NCBI GenBank assembly: GCA_965208125.1 | Contig: OZ242320.1 | Span: forward strand, 4,992,001 to 5,056,000 | Reading direction: 5' to 3' | Length of the DNA stretch: 64,000 bases | Origin: Candidatus Latescibacterota bacterium | Lineage (GTDB): Bacteria > Latescibacterota > UBA2968 | Shown here: piece by piece, positions 9,101-59,183 of the stretch | Position numbering within the stretch: position 1 is the stretch's first letter | How the letters are laid out: each line of letters begins with the position of its first letter | The notes under the pieces: generated by a model | What the model was told of the DNA's origin: nothing | Seen by the model: the letters and a program-made list of their open reading frames with translations, nothing else | The model's database searches: none | Program-made: the position numbers and the translations under genes

Positions 9101-10855
9101 TTGCCTCTGGCACTCATATTTGGCGGCGATTACGAAATTTGGCCGCCCTTTGCGATTGTGGTAATCGGAGGGCTGGCGGTTTCAACAGTTTCCACTCTCG
9201 TATTTATTCCCGTGGTGTACATGGGAATTGATCAGACCAAAGCCTGGCTTACGGATATTGGCTGGTTCGGGATCGTATTGGGAACCGCAGCAGCCGCGGG
9301 ATTGACGTATTGGGTTGACGATTATTACCAGAGTTTGTTCTGGACCTGTCTTTTGGCATTGCCAGCCTGGATGTTGTGTATGGGCGTGATCTGGATAGTG
9401 CAACGCATTTATCGCGCGCGTATGGCTTCTCTTGCTGAGATTGGCAATATTGAACATCTCGAAATTCGCAATCTGACCAAAATTTACGGTGCGCCGGGGC
9501 GATTTAAGCACGAATGGGATCGCTTTAAGCGGCGTCATCAGCGCCTTTTAGAGCGCGGGCAGGTATTGATAGATAAAAAGGCGATTAAGGACAGTTTGTG
9601 GTGGAAGTTACCACTTCTGGCACTTCTGATCTATTTGGAAACCTATTTTGAACAGGGAGCCTGGATATTTTTGGCGGGGCTTGCTATATGGGGCCTCGTG
9701 CATCACCTCGTGCTATGCGCGGCAGCTTTGCGCGATTTTCAGATTGAGAACAGATGGATATCACAAATCGCCCGATTGATTTTGCCGCTGGTCTTTATCG
9801 CCTTTATCCATTGGCGTTTGGAACTTCTGTCTTTGACCATCGCCACTACTGCGATTTACTTACTCTATCGCATCATCGGATTTTTGGCAAATCGCGTTGC
9901 ACGAGGTCGCATCGATCCCGAACATATATCGGGCAAATTAGGCCCTGTTAAAAGCATCGTGTACCGCGGTGCTGCAGCCGTTCCCCTGATTGGTGTTCCG
10001 CGCCCACAATTCCAGGCTCTCGGAGGTGTAAGTCTCGATATTCCGCGCGGCATGTTTGGGCTTTTGGGACCCAATGGCGCGGGCAAAACCACGCTGATGC
10101 GAATTGTCTGTCGGGTGTTGTCGTCAAATTACGGGTCGGTACTCGCCAATGGCAAAATACCGCTTACACATCGGAATATGCAGGGGGTGATTGGATATTT
10201 GCCGCAGCACTTTGGCCTGTATCTGCACATGTCTGCGTATAATTATCTGGAGTATCGCGCGCTTTTAGAGGGATTTAAGGATGGGGTAGCGCGGCGCAAG
10301 CGCGTTCAGGAATGTCTGGAGCAGGTCAATCTGTGGGATAGGCGAGACGATCTGATTGGGTCGTTCTCCGGCGGCATGAAACAGCGCGTGGGCATTGCAC
10401 AAACCCTGTTGCACTTGCCGCAGATTATCGTAGTGGATGAGCCGACAGCAGGATTGGATCCGCTCGAGCGGATTCGGTTCAGAAATTTGCTGGCGCGATT
10501 TAGCCAGGAAAAAATCATTATTTTTTCTACGCATATTGTCGAAGATATTGCGGGCAGTTGTAACCGATTGGCTGTACTGAATCACGGTAAGGTGCTCTAC
10601 ACGGGAACCCCGATTGAAATGCGCGATTTGGCGCGCGATAGGGTGTGGGAGGCTCTGCTGCCAGATCCGCGTTTTGAAGCGCTGGAACGCGACCTGGATA
10701 TGATTACACATGTGCGCGTGCCCGATGGGATTCGGGTGCGATTTCTCGCTACTGATCCCATCCCAGAAGCGCGTGCTGTTGCGCCCACCCTCGAAGATGC
10801 GTACCTTTATCTTTTGCGACATGGCGATGAATACAAACAGGCTAACATGGCGTGA
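6131..10855 (+). CDS. RND permease fused to extra TM helices and a C-terminal ABC ATPase domain
   Basis: The first ~1030 aa are RND-like ('GMLMDNGIVVMENI', 'RVRPVLMT'). The C-terminal part has Walker A GPNGAGKT, Q-loop YLPQ, signature FSGGMKQ, Walker B IIVVDE, D-loop PTAGLD and H-loop STH in one uninterrupted frame. Confidence 0.9.
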   Translation: MTLAGIAVRRPVTTAMFFIGLAILGAISLDRLPVQIFPELVRPEVFVALTQQGYSPEQVERNLVMPVEREVGKLEGIEAYESFSRQNSGGVRISYAPNTDMKFALLQLESRITRLQPLLPERTRVNVQRFDASDLSSSVMQIHVLGEGDINWLREFAEEKIRPELEAVDGVVNAQVLGGQRTAIEIIVDPLMLQAHQLSMSDVRNRINAFNTRRQYLGRVYDGDQAYAVSIQGQFTDLVQIRRVVIKPELPLHLGDIAKIRYGLQERTDLQRINGKAAVGIRIQKDDEANLIELAGELEDTIERINGDLAYENIQLVISQNLAEIMNEALNFLKRAAVVGGLLGLFVLFLFLRNLRFVAVLLLAIPCSLLLTFNLMYMWDLSLNVLSMCGLALAVGMLMDNGIVVMENIFKHFEQGKSPKEAAKAGTDEVARAVVAATATTITIFIPVVFIQSDFQDILREFALSIAFPLLASLLVALTLVPALASKTLSLASRPPTGTGVLIEMYTVCLKAGLRHRISVSLGIVGALVITLIISFFFMLQQDIRREESRFTVYISMPEGTTIEALDAVVGEIESAVRDLKGVDRFTTSISETQASINVELLPLSERPDLISVDLIKENLEESFEDVQNAVVSYEAIARTGRGGGGGRGGGGGGGIRGTRQATGGFNLEGGAPSEMAVIRGYDFTVLQMLADDLVYRLEELEEIDPNSVRADAERGASEVHVLPDEEVMFDRRLQVRQVLNAVSDANPRGARSNISFLTPEGTEIPIDVRNVEDPEEEGEGIAGLRQTPILGSGGTYIPLVEVSHVRRDQGRSMILRTDQSRRVIVSYNFAEEILQSQPLLEASRAYVQDVVSEMVLPEGYSIEMIEAEEETIYYWMMGIAAVLIYMILASLFESLSAPLIILCTWPAAIIGSCWALILSGTGLTSQEAPMALLGLIVLSGIAVNNGIVLIDAIETLRRRGFRRERAVLTASRSRVRPVLMTSATTILGMLPLALIFGGDYEIWPPFAIVVIGGLAVSTVSTLVFIPVVYMGIDQTKAWLTDIGWFGIVLGTAAAAGLTYWVDDYYQSLFWTCLLALPAWMLCMGVIWIVQRIYRARMASLAEIGNIEHLEIRNLTKIYGAPGRFKHEWDRFKRRHQRLLERGQVLIDKKAIKDSLWWKLPLLALLIYLETYFEQGAWIFLAGLAIWGLVHHLVLCAAALRDFQIENRWISQIARLILPLVFIAFIHWRLELLSLTIATTAIYLLYRIIGFLANRVARGRIDPEHISGKLGPVKSIVYRGAAAVPLIGVPRPQFQALGGVSLDIPRGMFGLLGPNGAGKTTLMRIVCRVLSSNYGSVLANGKIPLTHRNMQGVIGYLPQHFGLYLHMSAYNYLEYRALLEGFKDGVARRKRVQECLEQVNLWDRRDDLIGSFSGGMKQRVGIAQTLLHLPQIIVVDEPTAGLDPLERIRFRNLLARFSQEKIIIFSTHIVEDIAGSCNRLAVLNHGKVLYTGTPIEMRDLARDRVWEALLPDPRFEALERDLDMITHVRVPDGIRVRFLATDPIPEARAVAPTLEDAYLYLLRHGDEYKQANMA

Positions 10856-11555
10856 GTTGCTTTTCTTTGTCGGCAAAATGCACAGCCTGAGCATGAAAAT
10901 CGTGTTTCACCGCAAAATGATTTTCATGTTTGGCGGGATTGTTGCGTATTACGCAATTTTGTACGCGATTGCAATCTGGCGTCCGGGTGAAGGGCTTTCA
11001 GTCGAACAAGCCCTCCATGTATTGGTCGAAGTACCGGGCACGGTGCTTGCGATTTACCTGACGATGGATCTGGTGTCGGGGGAGAGGGATAAGGATACGC
11101 TTGAAATTCTGTTCAGCACGGCGATCAGCCACTACGCGACGTGGGCCGTGAGAATTGTGTCAATCAGTGCTGCGCTATTTGCCACGCTGATGGCAATGAG
11201 TACGATTTCCTACTATTTTTTTGCGGAGTTTCCCTATATCCTGGGGGGATTGAATGCCTGTATTCCCGCCTTTTTTATGGTGGGAGCCACATTTTTGTTT
11301 TCTGTTTTGTTCCGCAGTGGCAATGCGGCTGGCATGCTCGCCGTTGGGCTTTTGATTGCGATTTTGCTTTCTACCGAGATATTTGAGGATACATCGTATT
11401 ACCTTTTTCTCAAGCCATTTGATCCACCTTCAGATTTAGATACCAGCCTGTGGGTAAATCGCGTGGTCTTAAACCGCGCTGGCATTGCTATTCTGGGTAT
11501 CTTGTTCATTTTTCTGGCTCTGAGACGAATGATAGAGCGCGAAAAGCTGCTGTGA
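10827..11555 (+). CDS. ABC-2 type transporter permease subunit
   Basis: About 6 hydrophobic segments and an EAA-like 'GERDKDTLEILFST'. The ATG at 10827 overlaps the end of the preceding gene; the exact start is uncertain. Confidence 0.8.
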   Translation: MNTNRLTWRELLFFVGKMHSLSMKIVFHRKMIFMFGGIVAYYAILYAIAIWRPGEGLSVEQALHVLVEVPGTVLAIYLTMDLVSGERDKDTLEILFSTAISHYATWAVRIVSISAALFATLMAMSTISYYFFAEFPYILGGLNACIPAFFMVGATFLFSVLFRSGNAAGMLAVGLLIAILLSTEIFEDTSYYLFLKPFDPPSDLDTSLWVNRVVLNRAGIAILGILFIFLALRRMIEREKLL

Positions 11556-51193: not shown

Positions 51194-51232
51194 AAAAAGC
51201 CTTTGAAGCGCATATCTTCAGAGGCTTTTTTT
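51194..51232 (+). terminator. Intrinsic terminator after the sigma factor gene
   Basis: AAAAAGCCTTTGAAG...CTTCAGAGGCTTTTTTT. Confidence 0.8.
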
Positions 51233-51250: not shown

Positions 51251-51279
51251 TTGATTTGTCTGAGGTTGTTATGTACATT
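51251..51279 (+). promoter_or_regulatory. Putative promoter of the nitroreductase-dsrMK-desulfurase-dsrC operon
   Basis: TTGATT-N17-TACATT. Confidence 0.55.
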
Positions 51280-51322
51280 GCTGTACATTTCCTTTTTATC
51301 GAGACCCTACAGGAGGCAAGCG

Positions 51323-51892
51323 ATGGACGTTTTGGAAGCTATTCACACGCGGCGCACAATTTTTAAGTTCAAACCGGGTGGTGTGCCCAAAGATGTGATT
51401 GAAAAAACTTTTGAGGCCGGTCTATGGGCGCCCAATCACCATTTGACAGAACCATGGCGATTTGTAGTCCTGGGAGAAGAAACCAAAGAAATACTGGCGC
51501 AACGCTACAGCGAAATTCAGGAAGAAAAAGCGGCTGAAAGTGCCAGCGACGAGGCCAGGCGCATATTAAAAGAAGCCGGTTATGCCAAGTTCATGTCAAA
51601 GCCCACAATTATTGCAGTGGCCTGTTTGCAAGATGGCGATGAGATCAAGAATAGAGAAGATTATGCGGCCGCGTGTTGCGCCATGCAAAATGTACAGTTG
51701 GCTGCCTGGGCAGAAGGGGTTGGCATGCAGTGGAGCACGGGGCCGATCACGCTGGAAGAAAACACCTACAAATTGTTGGGTGTAGATACCGAGACCGAAT
51801 ACATCATCGGATTTTTCTATACTGGATATCCCGATGAGATTCCAGAACCGAGGCGCAAACCCCTCGAAGAGGTGCTGAGCTGGACGGATTGA
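51323..51892 (+). CDS. Nitroreductase family protein (YdjA-like)
   Basis: 'AI.TRRTI..F', 'WAPNHHLTEPWRF', 'A.QN..LAA.A.G.G..WSTG'. RBS AGGAGG. Confidence 0.9.
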   Translation: MDVLEAIHTRRTIFKFKPGGVPKDVIEKTFEAGLWAPNHHLTEPWRFVVLGEETKEILAQRYSEIQEEKAAESASDEARRILKEAGYAKFMSKPTIIAVACLQDGDEIKNREDYAAACCAMQNVQLAAWAEGVGMQWSTGPITLEENTYKLLGVDTETEYIIGFFYTGYPDEIPEPRRKPLEEVLSWTD

Positions 51893-52722
51893 TTCCGCTA
51901 ACCATGAATGGCTTTGAATTTTTTGTTCTCTATCGCCTGCCCTATTTCGCATTGCCTTTTTATTTCATCATGTTGGGCGTGCGAATATGGGTGTGGATGC
52001 GGTTTTACAACCCCGCGCTCAAGCTATTGCCACGAGCCAGGGGATCTGTATATGGCGTGTGGAAGCAGCAGTACCGGCCAACCATCCACATTTTTCCCGG
52101 ATCGCGCTCACAAAGCACAGAATGGAAGCGCGCGATAAAGGGCTTTGTTTTCTTTACCGGTCTCTATAAGCGAGATAAAATACTATGGCTGGGGTCCTGG
52201 TCGCTCCATTTAGGGCTATTCCTGGTAATTGTTGCCCATGTCCGCGTGATTTTGCCGCTTGACCTGGACCTGACCTGTTTACGCGTCGCATTGATCGGCA
52301 GTGGACTGATGACAGTGTCGGGCACTTATTTGTTGCTGCGTCGAATAATCGTTCAGCGCGTGCGGGAAATTACGGACTTTCGGGACTATCTGGCGGAACT
52401 CATCCTCCTGTTCTTCTCTGCGACGGCATTTCTCGTCGTATTATATGGTGGCGTGTCATCTGAAGTCTTGCGCCACTATGTGTCTGGCCTATTGACGGGC
52501 ACAACGACAGTTATTGAAGTACAACTCATTTTTGTCTGGCACATGCTCGCTGCACAGCTCTTATTGATCGTGATCCCATTTTCCCATCTATTGCATCTGG
52601 GGGGAATTTTTTTGAGCCGCGAATTTTTGGGCACATCCGATACATTTGCAGGGGAATTTGGATCGGGATTTTCAGGATTAAAGGATGAACAAGATGAAAA
52701 ACCACTAACCACTAACCACTAA
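51889..52722 (+). CDS. dsrM: DsrM/NarI-like diheme cytochrome b membrane subunit
   Basis: About 5 TM helices; heme-ligand His pairs 'LHLGLFLVIVAH' and 'WHMLAAQLLLIVIPFSHLLH'; 'RR.....VR.I....DY..'. Start may be 51904. Confidence 0.8.
   Translation: MIPLTMNGFEFFVLYRLPYFALPFYFIMLGVRIWVWMRFYNPALKLLPRARGSVYGVWKQQYRPTIHIFPGSRSQSTEWKRAIKGFVFFTGLYKRDKILWLGSWSLHLGLFLVIVAHVRVILPLDLDLTCLRVALIGSGLMTVSGTYLLLRRIIVQRVREITDFRDYLAELILLFFSATAFLVVLYGGVSSEVLRHYVSGLLTGTTTVIEVQLIFVWHMLAAQLLLIVIPFSHLLHLGGIFLSREFLGTSDTFAGEFGSGFSGLKDEQDEKPLTTNH
52659..52695 (+). repeat. Dispersed GGAT-periodic element, copy 2
   Basis: TGGATCGGGATtttCAGGATtaaAGGATgaaCAAGAT. Confidence 0.7.
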
Positions 52723-52727
52723 CCACT
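52700..52727 (+). repeat. Perfect heptamer tandem repeat (AACCACT)4 at the dsrM/dsrK junction
   Basis: Four exact copies; they contain the dsrM stop codon and the first base of the dsrK TTG. Confidence 0.95.
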
Positions 52728-54094
52728 TGAGAATCAGAAAATTGGAAAAGCCAGATCAAATAGAACGAGAGAAAAAATACATTCCAACAGGCCTGGTTGG
52801 CACGTATATGCGGCGCATTGCCGAATCGGATCCGTTTGTCCGCGAGATCCAGGATGAACCATCGGCATTGCGTTTGTACATGGATACGTGTACCAAATGT
52901 GGGGTGTGCGCGCAGGAATGCCCGGTGTATTACGGGCAGCCCGATAAGCGTATGCATCCGGTGGAACGCTCTCGGCAAGTGATTCGTTTATACAAAAAGT
53001 ACACGACATTTTGGGGGCGATTTTGGAATGCCATTTTTCCAAAACCAGATTTCGAAAATAACGATGCCGAGTTATTTGCCGAGCGCATGTACGAGTGTCT
53101 GACGTGTCGGCGGTGTGCGGCATTTTGTCCTGTGGGGATCGATCATTCGGTGATCTCGCGCGTTGGACGCTCGCTTGTCGATTTAATGGGTTTGACGCCG
53201 CCATCCCTTGCACAGGGCACGCACAATTCGTTTGAAACAGGCAATTTGGAAGGCGCGTCAGCCGAGGCATTTTTAGATGCGATTCAATTTATCGAAGACG
53301 AACTCAAGGAAGAAACGGGACGGGATATTGCCATTCCCTTAGACCGCGAAGGCGCGGAAATTTTCTTTTTGCCACCGTCTGGCGATGTGCTGGTTTATGC
53401 TGAAAATTTAATGGGCATGGCGAAAATTTTTCACGCCATCGGTGCCGATTGGACGATGAGTTCGCGGGCATTTGACGGATCGAATTTTGGATTTACGACC
53501 GGCAATAACTTTTCAATGAAATACGAGAACAAGCACTACATCGACGCGTGCGAAAATTTGGGATGTGAGCTTCTGGTAATGGGTGAATGCGGGCATGCGT
53601 ATCGGGTGATGAAGTTTATGGCCAGCGAAGGACGCTGGTGGGGCGCATTGCCTTTTGAGATTACCAGTGGCTTTGAATATACGGCACAACTTATTCGCAC
53701 AGGCAAATTGAAATTAGATCCGGGTAAAAATCCCGATCCCGTGACCTATCACGACGCCTGCCAATTTGCTGCCGGGTGTGGGATTGTCGAGGAACCCAGA
53801 GCGATTTTAAAAGCTGCCTGTGCCGATTACCGCGAGATGCCCGATGGCGGATATACGCAGTGGTGTTGCGGTGGTGGCGGTGGGTTATCGGCTCTGCGCT
53901 CGGTGCGCGCGTTTCGGATGGAGGTCTCGGGCAAAAAGAAAGCAGAGCAAATGCGCGAGACCGATGCGAAAATCGTATCGACCTCGTGTTTGCAGTGCCG
54001 CACACAACTCAAAGAAATCGCGCGCCATCACAAAATGCCACTAAGAATTACGGGTGTACACGAGTTGGTAAACAATGCGATTGTACTGGAATAG
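52727..54094 (+). CDS. dsrK: DsrK/HdrD-like Fe-S protein (heterodisulfide-reductase-like catalytic subunit)
   Basis: Two [4Fe-4S] motifs CTKCGVCAQECP and CLTCRRCAAFCP; DsrK-type 'G.NFG' and 'GECGHAYR'; CCG domain 'HDAC...WCCGGGGG...SCLQC'. Start uncertain. Confidence 0.82.
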   Translation: MRIRKLEKPDQIEREKKYIPTGLVGTYMRRIAESDPFVREIQDEPSALRLYMDTCTKCGVCAQECPVYYGQPDKRMHPVERSRQVIRLYKKYTTFWGRFWNAIFPKPDFENNDAELFAERMYECLTCRRCAAFCPVGIDHSVISRVGRSLVDLMGLTPPSLAQGTHNSFETGNLEGASAEAFLDAIQFIEDELKEETGRDIAIPLDREGAEIFFLPPSGDVLVYAENLMGMAKIFHAIGADWTMSSRAFDGSNFGFTTGNNFSMKYENKHYIDACENLGCELLVMGECGHAYRVMKFMASEGRWWGALPFEITSGFEYTAQLIRTGKLKLDPGKNPDPVTYHDACQFAAGCGIVEEPRAILKAACADYREMPDGGYTQWCCGGGGGLSALRSVRAFRMEVSGKKKAEQMRETDAKIVSTSCLQCRTQLKEIARHHKMPLRITGVHELVNNAIVLE

Positions 54095-54104
54095 CCGATA
54101 GCTC

Positions 54105-55322
54105 ATGTCTCATTTAATTTACATGGACAACGCGGCGACGACGTTTCCAAAGCCCCCTACTGTGCTGGAAGACGCGCTGGCGTTCTATCGAAAATACGGG
54201 GTAAACCCCGGGCGCAGTGGCACAGATCTGGCGAGAGAGGCCGAGGATATGGTTGCCGAGACGCGGGCATCGCTCGCTTCGTTTTTTGGCGCCACGGGCA
54301 GTCCCGATCGGCTTGTGTTTACACACAATGCCTCGGATGCGCTGAATATTGCGATTCAGGGCACGTTGAAATCCGGCGATCATGTAATTACAACATGTCT
54401 GGATCACAATTCGGTTTTGCGCCCGATTTACCATCTCTCAAAATACGAGGGAATTGAGGCGACTTATGTGGGCTTTGGGACAAATGGCTTTATCGACCCG
54501 GAGGATATTGCCAGGGCGATCAGGCCAAACACAAAACTCGTAGTGATGACCCATGCATCCAATGTATTGGGCACTGTGCAACCCGTAGCGGCAGTCGGCG
54601 CGATCTGCCGCGCACGCGGCGTAATTTTCTGCGTTGATGTGGCGCAAACAGCGGGCATGTTGCCCATTGATATGGAGGCGATGCACGCCGATATTCTGTG
54701 TTTTACCGGCCACAAGTCACTCATGGGACCAACGGGTACTGGTGGGATGTACGTGCGCGAAGGCGTGACAATTGCACCGTTGCGATACGGCGGAACGGGT
54801 GTGCGGTCGGAGTATCCCGATCACCTCGACGAGTATCCCTGGCGGTTGGAGTGTGGCACGGGCAATCTGATGGGCATTGCGGGGTTGTTATACGCGCAAA
54901 AATGGATGCTACGAGAAGGCGTGAAAAATATTCATGCACGCGAGATGGCTTTGTTTAAACAACTGGTCAATGGTCTGCACGAAGTCGATGGGACCATTTT
55001 GTATTGCGCTGAAAATCACGAACAACACGTGCCAGTATTGTCGGTCAATATCGAAGGGATGACAGCAAATAATGTGGGTACATTGCTGGATGTGAAGTTC
55101 AATGTGGCAACGCGCACGGGGTTGCTATGCGCGCCAAAGGTACATGAAACCCTGGGCACGAAAGCATTGAAGGGTACGGTGCGCCTTTCGTTGGGTCCCT
55201 TCAATACTGAAGCACAGATTGAGACTGTGATCGAAGGCTTGAGCGATATTTCCCAACGGCACGGACGACGCGATGTACAATTGCACCAGCAGGTAAAAGG
55301 TCAGGTGCGGAATGGCGTATGA
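54105..55322 (+). CDS. Cysteine desulfurase family protein (class V aminotransferase)
   Basis: 'YMDNAATTFPKP', 'HASNVLG', 'D.AQTAG', PLP Lys in 'TGHKSLMGP.GTG', catalytic Cys in 'RTGLLCAP'. Confidence 0.92.
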   Translation: MSHLIYMDNAATTFPKPPTVLEDALAFYRKYGVNPGRSGTDLAREAEDMVAETRASLASFFGATGSPDRLVFTHNASDALNIAIQGTLKSGDHVITTCLDHNSVLRPIYHLSKYEGIEATYVGFGTNGFIDPEDIARAIRPNTKLVVMTHASNVLGTVQPVAAVGAICRARGVIFCVDVAQTAGMLPIDMEAMHADILCFTGHKSLMGPTGTGGMYVREGVTIAPLRYGGTGVRSEYPDHLDEYPWRLECGTGNLMGIAGLLYAQKWMLREGVKNIHAREMALFKQLVNGLHEVDGTILYCAENHEQHVPVLSVNIEGMTANNVGTLLDVKFNVATRTGLLCAPKVHETLGTKALKGTVRLSLGPFNTEAQIETVIEGLSDISQRHGRRDVQLHQQVKGQVRNGV

Positions 55323-55635
55323 GATTGTGACGTTGGGCGGCAAAGAAATTGAGGTGGATGAGGATGGGTTTATCCAACAGCCCGAGCGTTGGGACGAAGA
55401 TGTGGCGCGCGATCTGGCCCGGCAAGATGGTATTGAAGAGATGACCAAAGATCATTGGCAGGTAGTGTATTATATCCGCAATTATTGGTTGAAATTCGAA
55501 ATCGCTCCATTGATCCGCCGCCTGTGCAAAGAGACAGAGAAAGATATCGATACGATTTACGATCTGTTTTCCGCAGGTCCTGCAGATGGCGCGTGTAAAA
55601 TCGCGGGTTTGCCAACGCCAACGGGGTGTACGTGA
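55312..55635 (+). CDS. dsrC: DsrC/TusE family sulfur relay protein with both C-terminal cysteines
   Basis: 'DEDGF...W....A..LA...GI......HW.V..Y.R'; C-terminus 'GP..GACKIAGLPTPTGCT' (C-x10-C). Confidence 0.9.
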   Translation: MAYEIVTLGGKEIEVDEDGFIQQPERWDEDVARDLARQDGIEEMTKDHWQVVYYIRNYWLKFEIAPLIRRLCKETEKDIDTIYDLFSAGPADGACKIAGLPTPTGCT

Positions 55636-55650
55636 CCGATAAAAATAAGT

Positions 55651-55694
55651 AAAAAAAATGAGGCGATTCCAATAGGAAATCGCCTCATTTTTTT
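55651..55694. terminator. Bidirectional terminator
   Basis: AAAAAAAATGAGGCGATT...AATCGCCTCATTTTTTT. Confidence 0.9.
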
Positions 55695-56681: not shown

Positions 56682-57605
56682 CTACAATTTCTTCAACTCT
56701 GCAAGCGAGGGAAAGGCGTGGCGTTCCCACACCCGCACGATCACCCCATCCACGATATAAGCCAGCCGCGGGTACCCATGCCCGTGGGTCAAACGCTTGA
56801 AATCAGCGAGAGAAATTGTAGCGATGGTAAAACGCGGTCGGAACTGCATTTTGAATTGCGCGGTCACGGGATGATCTTTGGGATACTGGCTCAAAGCAAT
56901 TAACCTGGGCACCTCTGGATCGGCAGCCCAGACATTGAGCTTGGGCACGGCGACCTGGCAATAGTGACAACTTGGACTGAACAACTCAATCAGATAGGCT
57001 CCCCGCGTCAAATCGATGTTCGTATCTAGCAGGGATAACCCTTTCAGATAATCACCCACCTGCAAGTCTGAATCAACCATCCGATCGCGCTCGGGCATAT
57101 ATCGAAAACCCAGTACGGTTAGAGAAACCAATCCCCCGACCAGGACCACCCATCGTCCCCAGACCCATAGCGCAACAGATCGTCGCCGCAGACCCCACCA
57201 AGAAAAGACCAGCAACCCCAGCATGAGAAAATTTTCCACCATCGCTTCACTCGGCGATCGATCGACCAGAGTGCCAAAACACCCGCAACTCTCCCCCATT
57301 CCCCGATGTAAGGCATGGGCGGTAATCGCAAGAAAAAAAACCATCATCACCACACCTATAGGCAAAACGAGACGCGGCTTCCAATCGACCAGAAGCGCGA
57401 AACCCACCATACATTCCAGCGGACCGAGCAACAGAGCCAATTTGGCGACCATTTCCACTGTCTCGCGCCCGACAAAAATTTGGGCAGGCATCATAGCCTC
57501 CCAAAAAAAGAGCACGGGATCCCATATCTTAGCCAGGCCAGCCACCAGAAAAACCACACCCATAATCCGCTGGCTTATCCACAAGCTCTTTTCTAATCTA
57601 TTCAT
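56682..57605 (-). CDS. MauE/DoxX-like membrane protein fused to a thioredoxin-like domain
   Basis: 'RI..G.VF..AG..K..DP', 'CGCFG', C-terminal 'FSPSCHYC' CxxC and 'YPRL'. Confidence 0.8.
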   Translation of the reverse strand: MNRLEKSLWISQRIMGVVFLVAGLAKIWDPVLFFWEAMMPAQIFVGRETVEMVAKLALLLGPLECMVGFALLVDWKPRLVLPIGVVMMVFFLAITAHALHRGMGESCGCFGTLVDRSPSEAMVENFLMLGLLVFSWWGLRRRSVALWVWGRWVVLVGGLVSLTVLGFRYMPERDRMVDSDLQVGDYLKGLSLLDTNIDLTRGAYLIELFSPSCHYCQVAVPKLNVWAADPEVPRLIALSQYPKDHPVTAQFKMQFRPRFTIATISLADFKRLTHGHGYPRLAYIVDGVIVRVWERHAFPSLAELKKL

Positions 57606-57619
57606 AGCTGTATCCTCTT

Positions 57620-58450
57620 TTAGCTCACAAACAACGGTTGATCGGATCTCGGTACAATACCCGCTTCTTCTGCTCGATCAAAAAGATCGACCAGCGCAGT
57701 CTCGCCATCTGCGCCATAATCCAACGTGTATTCATTGACGTAGAGATCGATGTGTTGCTGCATCACGGATTCGTCCATCTCCTGCGCATGCTCGCGGATA
57801 TAATTTTTAACTTCATCGGGATTTGAATGTGCATATTCCACACTGGCACAAAGAGATACATCAATCTGTTGAATTATTTCTACGCCGAGATCGCGTCGGG
57901 CGAGAATACCCCCAAGCGGAATGGGATGTCCCGTAGATGCCTCCCACCATTCGCCCAGATCAATGACTTTGTGCAAACCATAATCGGGATAGGTAAATCG
58001 CGATTCGTGGATGATCACGCCCGCATCGACATCGCCTTTTTGCGTGGCCCCCATAATCTCGTGAAAAGGCATCGCCACGAGGTTGTCAAGCGCGGGATTA
58101 AAGAGGCGCAACAAGAGCGCGGCCGTAGTGAGTTTGCCGGGAATGGCGATGCGTTTGTCCAACAGATCGCGCGGATCAAGGGCGTCAGCCGCGACAACGA
58201 GCGGGCCACACCCGCGTCCCAATGCCCCCCCCGAATGCAGCAGACAATACCGGTCACGCATAAATGCGAGCGCGTGGAATGATATTTTGGTCATATCCAA
58301 TTTACCTGCCATAGCCATGCGATTCAGGGTCTCGATATCCTCGAGAATCTCGCGGCATTGGGGTGCGCCATCTATTTTTCCATGAACCAGACCGTAAAAA
58401 ATATATGTGTCATTAGGACAGGGGGAATAACCGAGAGAAATACGGGACAT
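57620..58450 (-). CDS. mqnD: 1,4-dihydroxy-6-naphthoate synthase
   Basis: 'LGYSPCPNDT', 'DIETLN', 'GALGRGCGP', 'IIHESRFTY', 'PIPLGG', 'HI.LYVN'. Confidence 0.95.
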   Translation of the reverse strand: MSRISLGYSPCPNDTYIFYGLVHGKIDGAPQCREILEDIETLNRMAMAGKLDMTKISFHALAFMRDRYCLLHSGGALGRGCGPLVVAADALDPRDLLDKRIAIPGKLTTAALLLRLFNPALDNLVAMPFHEIMGATQKGDVDAGVIIHESRFTYPDYGLHKVIDLGEWWEASTGHPIPLGGILARRDLGVEIIQQIDVSLCASVEYAHSNPDEVKNYIREHAQEMDESVMQQHIDLYVNEYTLDYGADGETALVDLFDRAEEAGIVPRSDQPLFVS

Positions 58451-58463
58451 GGTGAACCTCGTG

Positions 58464-59183
58464 TCATAGAGCCTCAATGAATTTTCGCGCTGCAATTTGC
58501 ACCCTCTGGGCAGCGCGTGGAATATCCCAGGAGTCTTTATTGCGGTCTTCCACGCGATTGCTGATAGCGCGCAATTCGAGAAATGGAACCTCATAGAGCT
58601 TACAGATATGCGCCGCAGCCGCGCCCTCCATATTTTCACATATCGCATTGAACCGCGCTGCCAGTTCATTGCCAATATCCTCGCGTCCTGTACATTGTTG
58701 CACCGTAACAAAAGGACCTTGCACAACGCATTCGCCCAATTGCTCGAGTATGTGTTGCGCTCTGGCGACAAGCGCGGGATCGAGAGAATACGTATTGTAA
58801 TAATCGCGATCTGTTGACAGGACGGGAATGCCAATCTCATCAGCAGGAGACCAGCCAGCAGGTGTGATAATGCCTAAATCTCCATAATTTTCTTCAGTCG
58901 CAAGTGCAAGACCGCCTTTATCCAGGCCACTACCGAGATAAGCACCACCAATGCCGATTTGCAGAACGAGTTCGGGATCGATTTCTTGCAGTGCAACAGT
59001 CAGCGCCTGCGCTGTATTGACTGCTCCAATACCCGTTTCAAGCAGGACAACGGGTCTGATGCCAATCATACTGTGAACCCAGGCGCGATGCCCCCTGCGC
59101 TGTGTTGTCATCTGTTGAAGGCTATCGCGCAAACGCTGTTGCTCATAGGCTGTAGCTGTCAGGATGAGCAGAGTATCGGGCAT
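58464..59183 (-). CDS. mqnB: Futalosine hydrolase
   Basis: PNP/UDP fold: 'TGIG.VN.A', 'GIGGAY', 'E..GDLG', 'ENMEGAA.A', 'ELRAISN.V..R....W'; adjacent to mqnD. Confidence 0.9.
   Translation of the reverse strand: MPDTLLILTATAYEQQRLRDSLQQMTTQRRGHRAWVHSMIGIRPVVLLETGIGAVNTAQALTVALQEIDPELVLQIGIGGAYLGSGLDKGGLALATEENYGDLGIITPAGWSPADEIGIPVLSTDRDYYNTYSLDPALVARAQHILEQLGECVVQGPFVTVQQCTGREDIGNELAARFNAICENMEGAAAAHICKLYEVPFLELRAISNRVEDRNKDSWDIPRAAQRVQIAARKFIEAL

Follow-up and report, generated by a model that had tools for sequence, protein, structure and literature searches.

We describe a conserved gene module, dsrM-dsrK-csd-dsrC, in a 64,000-nt stretch of DNA (hereafter the window) from the genome of a Candidatus Latescibacterota bacterium (contig OZ242320.1, positions 4,992,001 to 5,056,000). 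The module encodes a DsrM-like membrane subunit, a DsrK-like iron-sulfur subunit, a pyridoxal phosphate (PLP)-dependent cysteine desulfurase (CSD) and a DsrC with two cysteines on its C-terminal arm. With somewhat better than even confidence, we favour the reading that these four proteins form a functional, DsrAB-independent DsrC cycle, in which cysteine sulfur would be loaded by CSD, DsrC would be re-reduced by DsrMK with menaquinol, and sulfide would be released. Conservation of the operon in a sponge-associated family of Latescibacterota points to a quinone-linked route from cysteine sulfur to sulfide. A preliminary description of this DNA had proposed that the desulfurase charges DsrC in a sulfite-reductase-independent, quinone-coupled cycle; the absence of dsrAB, the co-conservation of the genes and a predicted protein contact now support that proposal, whereas the transfer itself is something we infer.

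The module lies within a run of five co-directional, almost gapless genes at window positions 51323-55635 of the open reading frame (ORF) list. The ORFs and their family matches agree with the five-gene unit read earlier at this place (nitroreductase, DsrM, DsrK, desulfurase and DsrC), whose features are as follows:

51251-51279, plus strand: weak sigma-70-like promoter candidate, TTGATT-N17-TACATT, 8/12 match by direct reading
51323-51892, plus strand: nitroreductase-family FMN protein, 189 aa from ATG 51323 (PF00881, 94.8 bits)
51889-52722, plus strand: DsrM-like (NarI-type) membrane dihaem-b subunit (PF02665, 43.2 bits)
52727-54094, plus strand: DsrK-like cytoplasmic iron-sulfur/CCG subunit, HdrD-type (best model NF045796 DsrK, 311 bits)
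54105-55322, plus strand: class-V PLP cysteine desulfurase of family TIGR01977 (TIGR01977, 422 bits; PF00266, 294 bits)
55312-55635, plus strand: DsrC with arm cysteines C95 and C106 (PF04358, 115.5 bits)
55652-55694, no strand: bidirectional intrinsic terminator with a 19-pair stem, between dsrC and a convergent 2-hydroxy-3-oxopropionate-reductase-like gene

Only 4 nt separate dsrM from dsrK and 10 nt separate dsrK from csd, and the csd stop overlaps the dsrC start by 11 nt in the ORF list, as had been claimed. Neither the ORF list nor searches with family models placed dsrAB, dsrJOP, dsrEFH or tusBCD within the unit, again in agreement with the earlier account.

Sulfur genes of the host genome

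The host genome is a single 5.75-Mb contig, 96% complete. Genome-wide, no dsrA or dsrB scored over its cut-off: the best matches, at 33 bits for dsrA (cut-off 393) and 38 bits for dsrB (cut-off 342), are one 744-aa sulfite/nitrite-reductase-like ORF. The best match to aprA reached 28.5 bits against a cut-off of 642, and neither the DsrE/DsrF/TusBCD family (PF02635) nor TusA (PF01206) had any match in the genome. Hence, the possibility that dsrAB lies elsewhere in the genome, with the module as its ordinary accompaniment, found no support, and the accompanying search for dsrEFH, tusBCD and apr likewise came back empty. Two further genes sought in the same check are present, namely mnmA, 4.5 Mb from the module, and a gene for ATP sulfurylase, which is presumably assimilatory. 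The genome encodes three CCG proteins, just one of them DsrK-like, and a single PF04358 protein.

The genome also carries selD (G000:C1:1005559-1006482, minus strand, L113; 365 bits, cut-off 125), 4 Mb from the module. This gene contains one in-frame TGA, so SelD is probably a selenocysteine-containing protein and the organism likely makes selenoproteins.

Conservation of the module within one family

We surveyed 168 Latescibacterota species genomes, in which the family of the host, f1, is represented by 30 genomes plus its own, counting DsrK-like genes at an identity of at least 73%, this CSD at E <= 1e-80 and dsrA over its cut-off. The DsrK-like gene was found in 29/168 genomes (the host and 28/30 of f1) and this CSD in 28/168 (the host and 27/30 of f1). 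PF04358 proteins occur in 33/168: the host, 27/30 of f1, four genomes of family f10, and G003, the sole dsrAB-bearing genome. The same 27 f1 genomes, together with the host, carry both this CSD and the module DsrC, and all of them also hold the DsrK-like gene; by genus, the counts for CSD and for module DsrC are identical (g1 20/20, g3 3/3, g4 1/1, g5 3/3). One f1 genome, G062 (genus g2; 82% complete and fragmented), has the DsrK-like gene only, at a contig end, and both g6 genomes are without all three genes. dsrA was found in 0/31 f1 genomes, 13 of them single contigs, and in 1/168 genomes overall (G003).

A DsrK scan of the genome contigs returned 23 Latescibacterota-type loci and two distant archaeal loci. 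The order dsrM-dsrK-csd-dsrC is the same in 21/23 of the former, the other two being cut by contig ends, and a metagenome scan with two peptide patterns added at least three further module loci. The four-gene core is intact even where both flanks differ, as in L020 (same genus) and L102 (genus g5). In L021 and L027, unrelated genes lie between the nitroreductase gene and dsrM, and in L020 and L102 neither flank contains it; we therefore regard it as a neighbour of the module and not as part of the core. These results run counter to the possibility, raised with the preliminary description, that the desulfurase might not be co-conserved with dsrMKC. We conclude, on the grounds of sequence, that the module is real, conserved and intact.

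It could still be argued that the genes have no joint function, and that a DsrMK-like thiol/disulfide or stress module simply lies beside an unrelated desulfurase in one lineage. All carriers do belong to one family, and the DsrMK-DsrC units of a sister clade (described below) adjoin MerR-type regulators, a desulfurase match being present in only 1 of the 21 listed. However, the 10-nt gap and 11-nt overlap, the gene order kept where flanks change and the matching presence and absence across 168 genomes all argue against this explanation, as do a complex prediction that passes its mark and complementary charge changes at the predicted interface (also below). We consider it quite unlikely.

Other loci in the survey differ from the module. 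The only true dsrA in the phylum set (G003:C258:145-2089, family f5; 467 bits, cut-off 393) lies beside a dsrB-like match, and G003 also holds a DsrC and a distant DsrK-like gene. The PF04358 copies of f10 are 38-40% identical to the module DsrC and stand in a different context; one such locus (L099 9398-13153, genome G011, no dsrA) encodes a LysR regulator, a Pyr_redox_2 flavoprotein (409 aa), an unknown 224-aa protein, a DsrC-like protein and a DsrE_2-family protein, the DsrC-like protein being 38% identical to the module DsrC and having one terminal Cys. In L102, from the most divergent carrier (G067, g5), a ResA/TlpA-like thioredoxin-fold gene directly follows dsrC on the same strand (10718-11230, plus strand; AhpC-TSA, 93 bits; ResA model, 114.5 bits, cut-off 170).

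Family assignment of DsrC

The C-terminus of the module DsrC reads ...GACKIAGLPTPTGCT, giving C95-x10-C106 with C106 penultimate. The presence of both C-terminal cysteines, as originally described for this protein, extends to 24/24 module loci. The protein passes the family models PF04358 (cut-off 24.9) and TIGR03342 (111.1 bits, cut-off 53.5) and fails the TusE equivalog NF008562 (76.6 bits, cut-off 191). Its best matches in the Protein Data Bank (PDB) are the DsrC of Pyrobaculum (114 bits), Archaeoglobus (98 bits) and Desulfovibrio (94 and 90 bits), and the weakest family chain among the matches listed is 7syb ('Sulfurtransferase'), at 34 bits. Identity to 105-aa DsrCs is 58-67%, the few source-named ones being from Deltaproteobacteria, Clostridia and Poribacteria. 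The DiSCo criteria, as given in part of PMC8477390, separate DsrC from TusE/RspA by two C-terminal cysteines, CysB-x10-CysA with CysA penultimate, and by the arm motif AGLPKPTG..C with at most one difference. The arm of the module protein reads AGLPTPTGC, a single difference (K to T) that the motif allows, and its last residue is T, not V; as to the further criterion of DsrAB in the same genome, no dsrA or dsrB over cut-off accompanies it. We conclude from models and motifs that the protein is DsrC-type, not TusE-type. No CSD-DsrC fusion was seen among five DsrC relatives of 189-2000 aa, all of which matched PF04358 only; this is weak evidence either way.

This assignment bears on an alternative in which CSD and DsrC would act as a biosynthetic relay, like IscS/TusE or SufS/SufE, delivering persulfide to thiolation (s2U in tRNA by MnmA, or cofactors), with DsrMK rescuing the DsrC disulfide. 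The protein belongs to the TusE/DsrC family as a whole, MnmA is present, and a short relay would be needed given that TusA and TusBCD are absent. SufS-like desulfurases are usually paired with a dedicated acceptor, and the docking predicted beside the active-site loop (below) fits either reading. Nevertheless, both the failed TusE equivalog and the PDB matches, at 90-114 bits, favour DsrC, and both arm cysteines are kept at every module locus although a carrier needs only one. Moreover, mnmA is 4.5 Mb away, the module is absent from 137 other Latescibacterota genomes and from two of the same family, and known biosynthetic relays do not include a quinol-linked reductase in the membrane. A biosynthetic relay is in our judgement unlikely.

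CSD and the DsrK-like and DsrM-like proteins

CSD scores over the TIGR01977 cut-off of 377 bits. Its PLP Lys204 and catalytic Cys342 (in RTGLLCAP) align to those of solved SufS-type desulfurases and are invariant in 34/34 rows. It is the only enzyme of its type in the genome, other Aminotran_5 genes being at most 31% identical, and in five module-less relatives the best desulfurase is only 31-32% identical to it. Elsewhere the genome encodes a SufS-like desulfurase and one more of class V; for this reason, and because module-less kin are without an orthologue of CSD, CSD is not a housekeeping copy. Identity falls from at least 64% within the module clade directly to 54-58% for relatives in many phyla, of which the source-named ones outside Latescibacterota include Desulfobacterales, Planctomycetes, Zixibacteria and Bacteroidota.

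The selenocysteine lyase model SclA (NF040779) gives 329 bits on CSD, below its cut-off of 525. Were the PLP enzyme a selenocysteine lyase, DsrC might carry selenium (for SelD) and DsrMK might keep the carrier reduced, a reading to which the SclA score and a selD gene with an in-frame TGA lend some colour. However, SclA falls short where TIGR01977 passes, selD is 4 Mb away, the unit contains no selenium-trait gene, and DsrC, DsrM and DsrK are sulfur-cycle families; we regard selenium handling as very improbable.

The DsrK-like protein has Fer4_8 (45.6 bits) and CCG (39.4 bits) domains. Two four-cysteine motifs (C55/58/61/65 and C124/127/130/134), the sequence C288-G-H290 and a single CCG motif (H342-D-x-C345 / C380-C381-G / C421-x-x-C424) are invariant in 8/8 and 16/16 rows. 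In the structure of DsrMKJOP from A. fulgidus, C329, H331 and D500 of DsrK are strictly conserved (bioRxiv 10.64898/2026.08.25.746951, in part), and C288-G-H290 is the Cys-x-His that corresponds to C329/H331; D500 is the Asp that stands in for the supernumerary Cys ligand. After the CCG motif, acidic residues are conserved in one column only, that of Glu446, which is Asp in 12/16 rows, Glu in two (those of the module) and Asn in two. A PDB search found no solved DsrK, the only match being a 1042-aa iron-sulfur reductase at 48 bits.

The DsrM-like protein passes PF02665 (cut-off 22.9), and its four histidines (H107, H117, H218 and H236) are invariant in 9/9 aligned rows; their spacing, 10 and 18 residues, presumably matches that of the NarI haem ligands. 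An apparent DsrM-DsrK fusion in L009 and L025 proved to be an artefact, as separate ORFs are listed in both.

Predicted contact between CSD and DsrC

We predicted the complex of two CSD copies (residues 1-390) and one DsrC from custom alignments. The scores were 0.67, 0.67 and 0.66, and three controls each gave 0.00. The mark applied is reached by 116/157 solved complexes and by 2/215 mismatched pairs, although it is rough for a prediction with custom alignments and three chains. The runs agree in at least 85% of contacts, with a partner pLDDT of at least 86. On CSD, the predicted interface comprises residues 320, 322-323, 326-327, 329-331 and 385-386 of one copy and residues 41 and 44 of the other, and its helix 320-331 just precedes the catalytic loop (R337...C342). 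On DsrC, it comprises residues 67-69, 72, 78-80, 83 and 87-92, at the base of the cysteine arm. The closest predicted pairs include CSD 331 with DsrC 80, and CSD 320/322/323 with DsrC 92. We know of no solved desulfurase-DsrC complex, and it seems unlikely that the prediction reproduces a known structure.

We compared charges at aligned positions in 120 CSD relatives and 120 DsrC relatives, among the matches listed:

CSD 320: T in 45/48 module-type proteins; acidic in 71/72 others
CSD 323: N in 46/48 module-type proteins; acidic in 53/72 others
CSD 331: K in 46/48 module-type proteins; acidic in 71/72 others
CSD 385: R in 46/48 module-type proteins; mostly hydrophobic in others
DsrC 80: D in 35/37 module-type proteins; K in 72/83 others
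DsrC 92: D in 35/37 module-type proteins; K in 79/83 others
DsrC 102: T in 35/37 module-type proteins; K in 79/83 others

Three of the seven charge-switch positions of CSD fall inside its 12-residue interface (hypergeometric p ~7e-4), and two of the three in DsrC fall inside its 14-residue interface (p ~0.04), the third being in the arm; both values ignore relatedness and are indicative only, all changes lying on one branch. The CSD surface has become basic and DsrC acidic, and a complementary pattern of this kind is, as read from the alignments, the one that compensatory changes would leave at a genuine interface; we find this sequence-only comparison especially telling. Together, the modelled complex and the charge-swapped residues support direct contact between CSD and DsrC.

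The comparison also raises a broader idea, that the TIGR01977-type desulfurase is a general, dedicated DsrC loader across many phyla. It arises because the acidic patch of the relatives (320/323/331) would match K80/K92 of ordinary DsrC, the charges of the pair being swapped on both sides in Latescibacterota. We put this forward tentatively and think it rather unlikely. If it were true, the path from cysteine through DsrC and DsrMK to sulfide would constitute a widely distributed kind of anaerobic respiration or of sulfide formation, a 'cysteine respiration' with alanine as its product. Such a route would operate without sulfite reductase, and might also feed DsrC in true sulfate reducers.

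Origin of the parts

Among 1.84 billion representatives, the nearest DsrK outside the module clade is 52% identical, and the next are 41, 39 and 38% identical. A sister clade, with DsrK 43-55% identical and at least 21 metagenome loci, encodes a MerR-type regulator, a DsrC-like protein, DsrM and DsrK. The DsrC-like protein is 30-39% identical to the module DsrC, has a displaced CysB (FPCG...GAYR...GC) and is encoded directly upstream of dsrM in 13/21 loci, among the matches listed. On the DsrK model (cut-off 400), DsrK proteins encoded behind a canonical DsrC (DsrC 55-60% identical to that of the module) score 459-541 bits, those of the sister clade 344-383 and those of the module 300-311. In a quick maximum-likelihood tree of 40 chosen rows, with SH-aLRT support only, the module clade (support 100) sits on a long branch and joins the MerR-DsrC-DsrMK clade with a support of 99. 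From these comparisons we conclude that the module is chimeric, combining DsrMK of an alternative type with a DsrC of canonical type and a TIGR01977 desulfurase of a widespread kind.

The sister-clade loci have further features of their own. They start with a MerR/HTH_17 regulator (L045, L047, L051, L053, L056 and L058) and often include DsrC-DsrC tandem fusions of ~216 aa that lack the terminal Cys, along with a Macro-domain protein. Often, too, a PAS histidine kinase is encoded, as is a second DsrM/DsrK pair in which DsrK carries a fused response-regulator receiver.

Habitat and expression

Sequencing runs with near-identical words are mostly labelled as sponge metagenomes (20 rows listed, 12 studies), and four sponge metatranscriptome libraries, belonging to two studies, contain matching contigs. 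Two of the libraries (X15 and X16) hold contigs of 159-534 nt, 90-99% alike, on the nitroreductase gene, dsrM, the dsrM-dsrK junction, dsrK and csd. The other two (X17 and X18) hold contigs of 12-13 kb that span the whole unit and the convergent neighbour, and may be DNA carry-over. Taken together, the matches suggest that the unit is expressed in sponges.

A proposed DsrAB-independent DsrC cycle and the points against it

For the sulfur transfer, the DsrC chemistry, the direction in which electrons flow and the module's physiological role, we infer the following. CSD would take the sulfur of L-cysteine, leaving alanine, as a persulfide on Cys342. DsrC would receive the sulfur on its penultimate residue, Cys106, with its flexible C-terminal arm docked beside the active-site loop of the desulfurase. 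Cys95 would then resolve the persulfide to give sulfide and a Cys95-Cys106 disulfide, or a trisulfide if the sulfur is kept. Oxidised DsrC would be reduced by the cytoplasmic DsrK-like subunit at its single CCG-type (non-cubane) iron-sulfur site, with electrons drawn from menaquinol via the dihaem DsrM-like anchor. The net reaction would be cysteine + menaquinol -> alanine + H2S + menaquinone, and in a sponge symbiont the cycle might serve as an electron sink and as a means of controlled cysteine breakdown.

From Thauer-type tables of free energies, the cysteine/(alanine + H2S) couple is estimated to lie near -0.1 V, close to menaquinone; the net reaction would therefore proceed at low sulfide. 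In complexes made of DsrMK only, DsrM is probably the site where menaquinol is oxidised (bioRxiv 10.64898/2026.08.25.746951, in part). Cysteine or cystine is known physiologically as an electron acceptor in some anaerobes; such use is mentioned for relatives of Acetomicrobium (PMC10579422, in part), without this enzymology.

The same parts could in principle run in the oxidative direction, with CSD replacing DsrEFH as the donor to DsrC and DsrMK oxidising persulfurated DsrC (to the trisulfide), so that electrons would reach menaquinone. Persulfurated DsrC of Allochromatium is thought to be oxidised by DsrMK(JOP) (PMC8477390, in part), and the host probably respires with menaquinone. However, there is no reverse DsrAB in the genome to take the trisulfide and no DsrEFH/DsrL-type context in the unit, and the DsrCs to which that of the module is 58-67% identical come, where named, from the Deltaproteobacteria, Clostridia and Poribacteria listed above. 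We judge an oxidative role to be distinctly improbable, and return to the reductive DsrC cycle.

Several points weigh against that cycle. Menaquinol is, by standard potentials, a weak reductant for a persulfide or a disulfide, a matter that is likewise debated for the DsrMK of sulfate reducers. The DsrK-like protein scores below the NF045796 cut-off (311 bits, and 300 bits for the L102 copy, against 400), the DsrM-like protein reaches only 44 bits on the DsrM model NF038037 (cut-off 300), and the column that would be the counterpart of A. fulgidus D500 has Glu (Glu446) in the module. In the tree, DsrK groups with the alternative MerR-DsrC-DsrMK clade, apart from the canonical clade (support 99). 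Given that only 1/21 of the sister-clade loci listed has a desulfurase match, and that one 6 kb away, DsrMK-DsrC units need no adjacent desulfurase. The family of CSD includes a selenocysteine lyase, and the genome has selD. The score of the predicted complex is model confidence, not a measurement. Since the carriers are all of one family, the module has one evolutionary origin and its co-occurrence is not statistical proof; much of the wider synteny is also inherited. Finally, expression is only suggested, because dsrC lies outside the short RNA contigs of X15 and X16 and the long contigs may be DNA.

Relation to known systems

The module shares with the DsrAB-DsrC-DsrMK(JOP) systems of sulfate and sulfite reducers a DsrC whose two arm cysteines stand the same distance apart, a NarI-type dihaem membrane subunit, and a DsrK-type subunit with one CCG site and a conserved Cys-x-His. 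In contrast to those systems, its genome is without DsrAB and it has a cysteine desulfurase where a sulfur donor is needed; its DsrK and DsrM do not reach the equivalog cut-offs and group with a DsrMK clade of an alternative type; and its DsrC arm has lost three lysines (K80D, K92D and K102T) and ends in CT, not CV. The DsrC trisulfide's reduction with menaquinol through DsrMK(JOP) was reportedly described in a PNAS study of 2024. The DsrMK-only form of the module, lacking JOP, resembles the 'DsrM-1' systems, which are quinol-oxidising and DsrMK-only, with an open NarI-like quinol site, no two Arg and no TMH3 loop (bioRxiv 10.64898/2026.08.25.746951, in part).

In the DsrEFH -> DsrC -> DsrMKJOP pathway of the sulfur oxidiser Allochromatium vinosum (PMC3397948 and PMC8477390, both in part), as in the cycle proposed here, DsrC is persulfurated by a dedicated cytoplasmic donor and not from sulfite, and DsrMK then alters its redox state. 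The donor in the module, however, would be a PLP desulfurase acting on free cysteine, and DsrEFH, TusA, reverse DsrAB and JOP are all missing. The SufS-SufE/SufU and CsdA-CsdE pairs (PDB 5xt5 and 4lw4) are similar in that the best solved relatives of CSD are SufS-type, the acceptor gene is adjacent and docking is predicted beside the catalytic-Cys loop, but the acceptor in the module has a DsrC fold with two cysteines and is coupled to a membrane quinol-linked reductase and not to Fe-S assembly. The IscS-TusA-TusBCD-TusE-MnmA relay of Escherichia coli likewise takes sulfur from a cysteine desulfurase and employs a member of the TusE family; it differs in that the module protein fails the TusE model (76.6 against 191 bits) and keeps the second cysteine, TusA and TusBCD are absent, and mnmA is unlinked. 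HdrDE of methanogens, a homologue (bioRxiv 10.64898/2026.08.25.746951, in part), also combines a b-type cytochrome anchor with a CCG subunit to reduce a disulfide with membrane quinone-like electrons, whereas the module would act on a protein substrate, DsrC, and has one non-cubane site where HdrDE has two.

In the literature searched, the Venceslau 2014 review of DsrC lying outside its scope, we found no description of DsrC-DsrMK with a cysteine desulfurase and without sulfite reductase. Neukirchen 2023, in the part available, treats only DsrABCMK sets and notes seven assemblies with a basal DsrMK and no DsrAB. The parts of the module are thus known families, and the evidence points to their combination, with a desulfurase as DsrC donor in sulfite-reductase-free genomes, being undescribed.

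DsrC and DsrMK have been regarded as markers of dissimilatory sulfite reductase and as its obligate partners. Here both are conserved and intact in 13 single-contig genomes free of DsrAB, and both are linked to a cysteine desulfurase; surveys of sulfur cycling that rely on markers can therefore misinterpret dsrC and dsrMK. If the proposed cycle operates, DsrC would gain a second, organic source of sulfur, and the sponge symbionts would possess a defined set of enzymes for turning cysteine from host or diet into sulfide and alanine. The four-protein system could also be used to examine what DsrMK does with DsrC (disulfide, persulfide or trisulfide, and the coupling to quinol) free of DsrAB.

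Boundaries of the transcription unit and neighbouring genes

The preliminary description had bounded the unit by a promoter at 51251 and a strong terminator. The terminator stands: the hairpin scan gives the stem at 55652-55694 six GC pairs and a 5-nt loop, with A and T runs on either side. The promoter stands less well, since the candidate at 51251 matches at 8/12 positions, one short of the 9 that the scan requires, and is missing from its list. Given this weak promoter-like match, TTG 51251 more probably belongs to a -35 box than serves as a start codon. The nitroreductase ORF, although listed as 51251-51892, likely starts at ATG 51323, with AGGAGG 7 nt upstream. The sigma-factor gene upstream ends in a terminator-like hairpin at ~51199-51232, so a new transcript must begin within ~90 nt before 51323. 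The nitroreductase gene and dsrM overlap by 4 nt, or are 14 nt apart if DsrM starts at ATG 51907, an alternative that better fits its relatives.

Two junctions within the unit vary among relatives. The heptamer CCACTAA, repeated three to four times, encodes the DsrM tail and reaches the dsrK start (window 52700-52726); a close relative has CCCCTAA three times at the same place (L009 6975-6998), and in contigs of relatives 52671-52758 is replaced by 22 other letters. The dsrM-dsrK junction is thus a variable, repeat-prone spot. The C-terminal tail of the desulfurase after ~residue 388 differs in length, the relatives being 388-412 aa long, and contigs of relatives are without 4 + 20 nt in the 3' tail of csd (window 55269-55297). 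Because this tail varies in length, the csd/dsrC overlap is not conserved.

Two menaquinone genes lie 2-3.5 kb downstream of the unit on the opposite strand, where mqnB and mqnD had been placed: mqnB at 58464-59183 (minus strand; TIGR03664, 221 bits, cut-off 124.7) and a gene of the MqnA/MqnD family at 57620-58456 (minus strand; PF02621, 274 bits). Two genes from dsrC, window positions 56682-57605 (minus strand) encode a membrane protein whose N-terminal domain is MauE/DoxX-like (PF07291, 67.6 bits) and whose C-terminal part has a CHYC motif; it is a possible membrane thiol-disulfide oxidoreductase.

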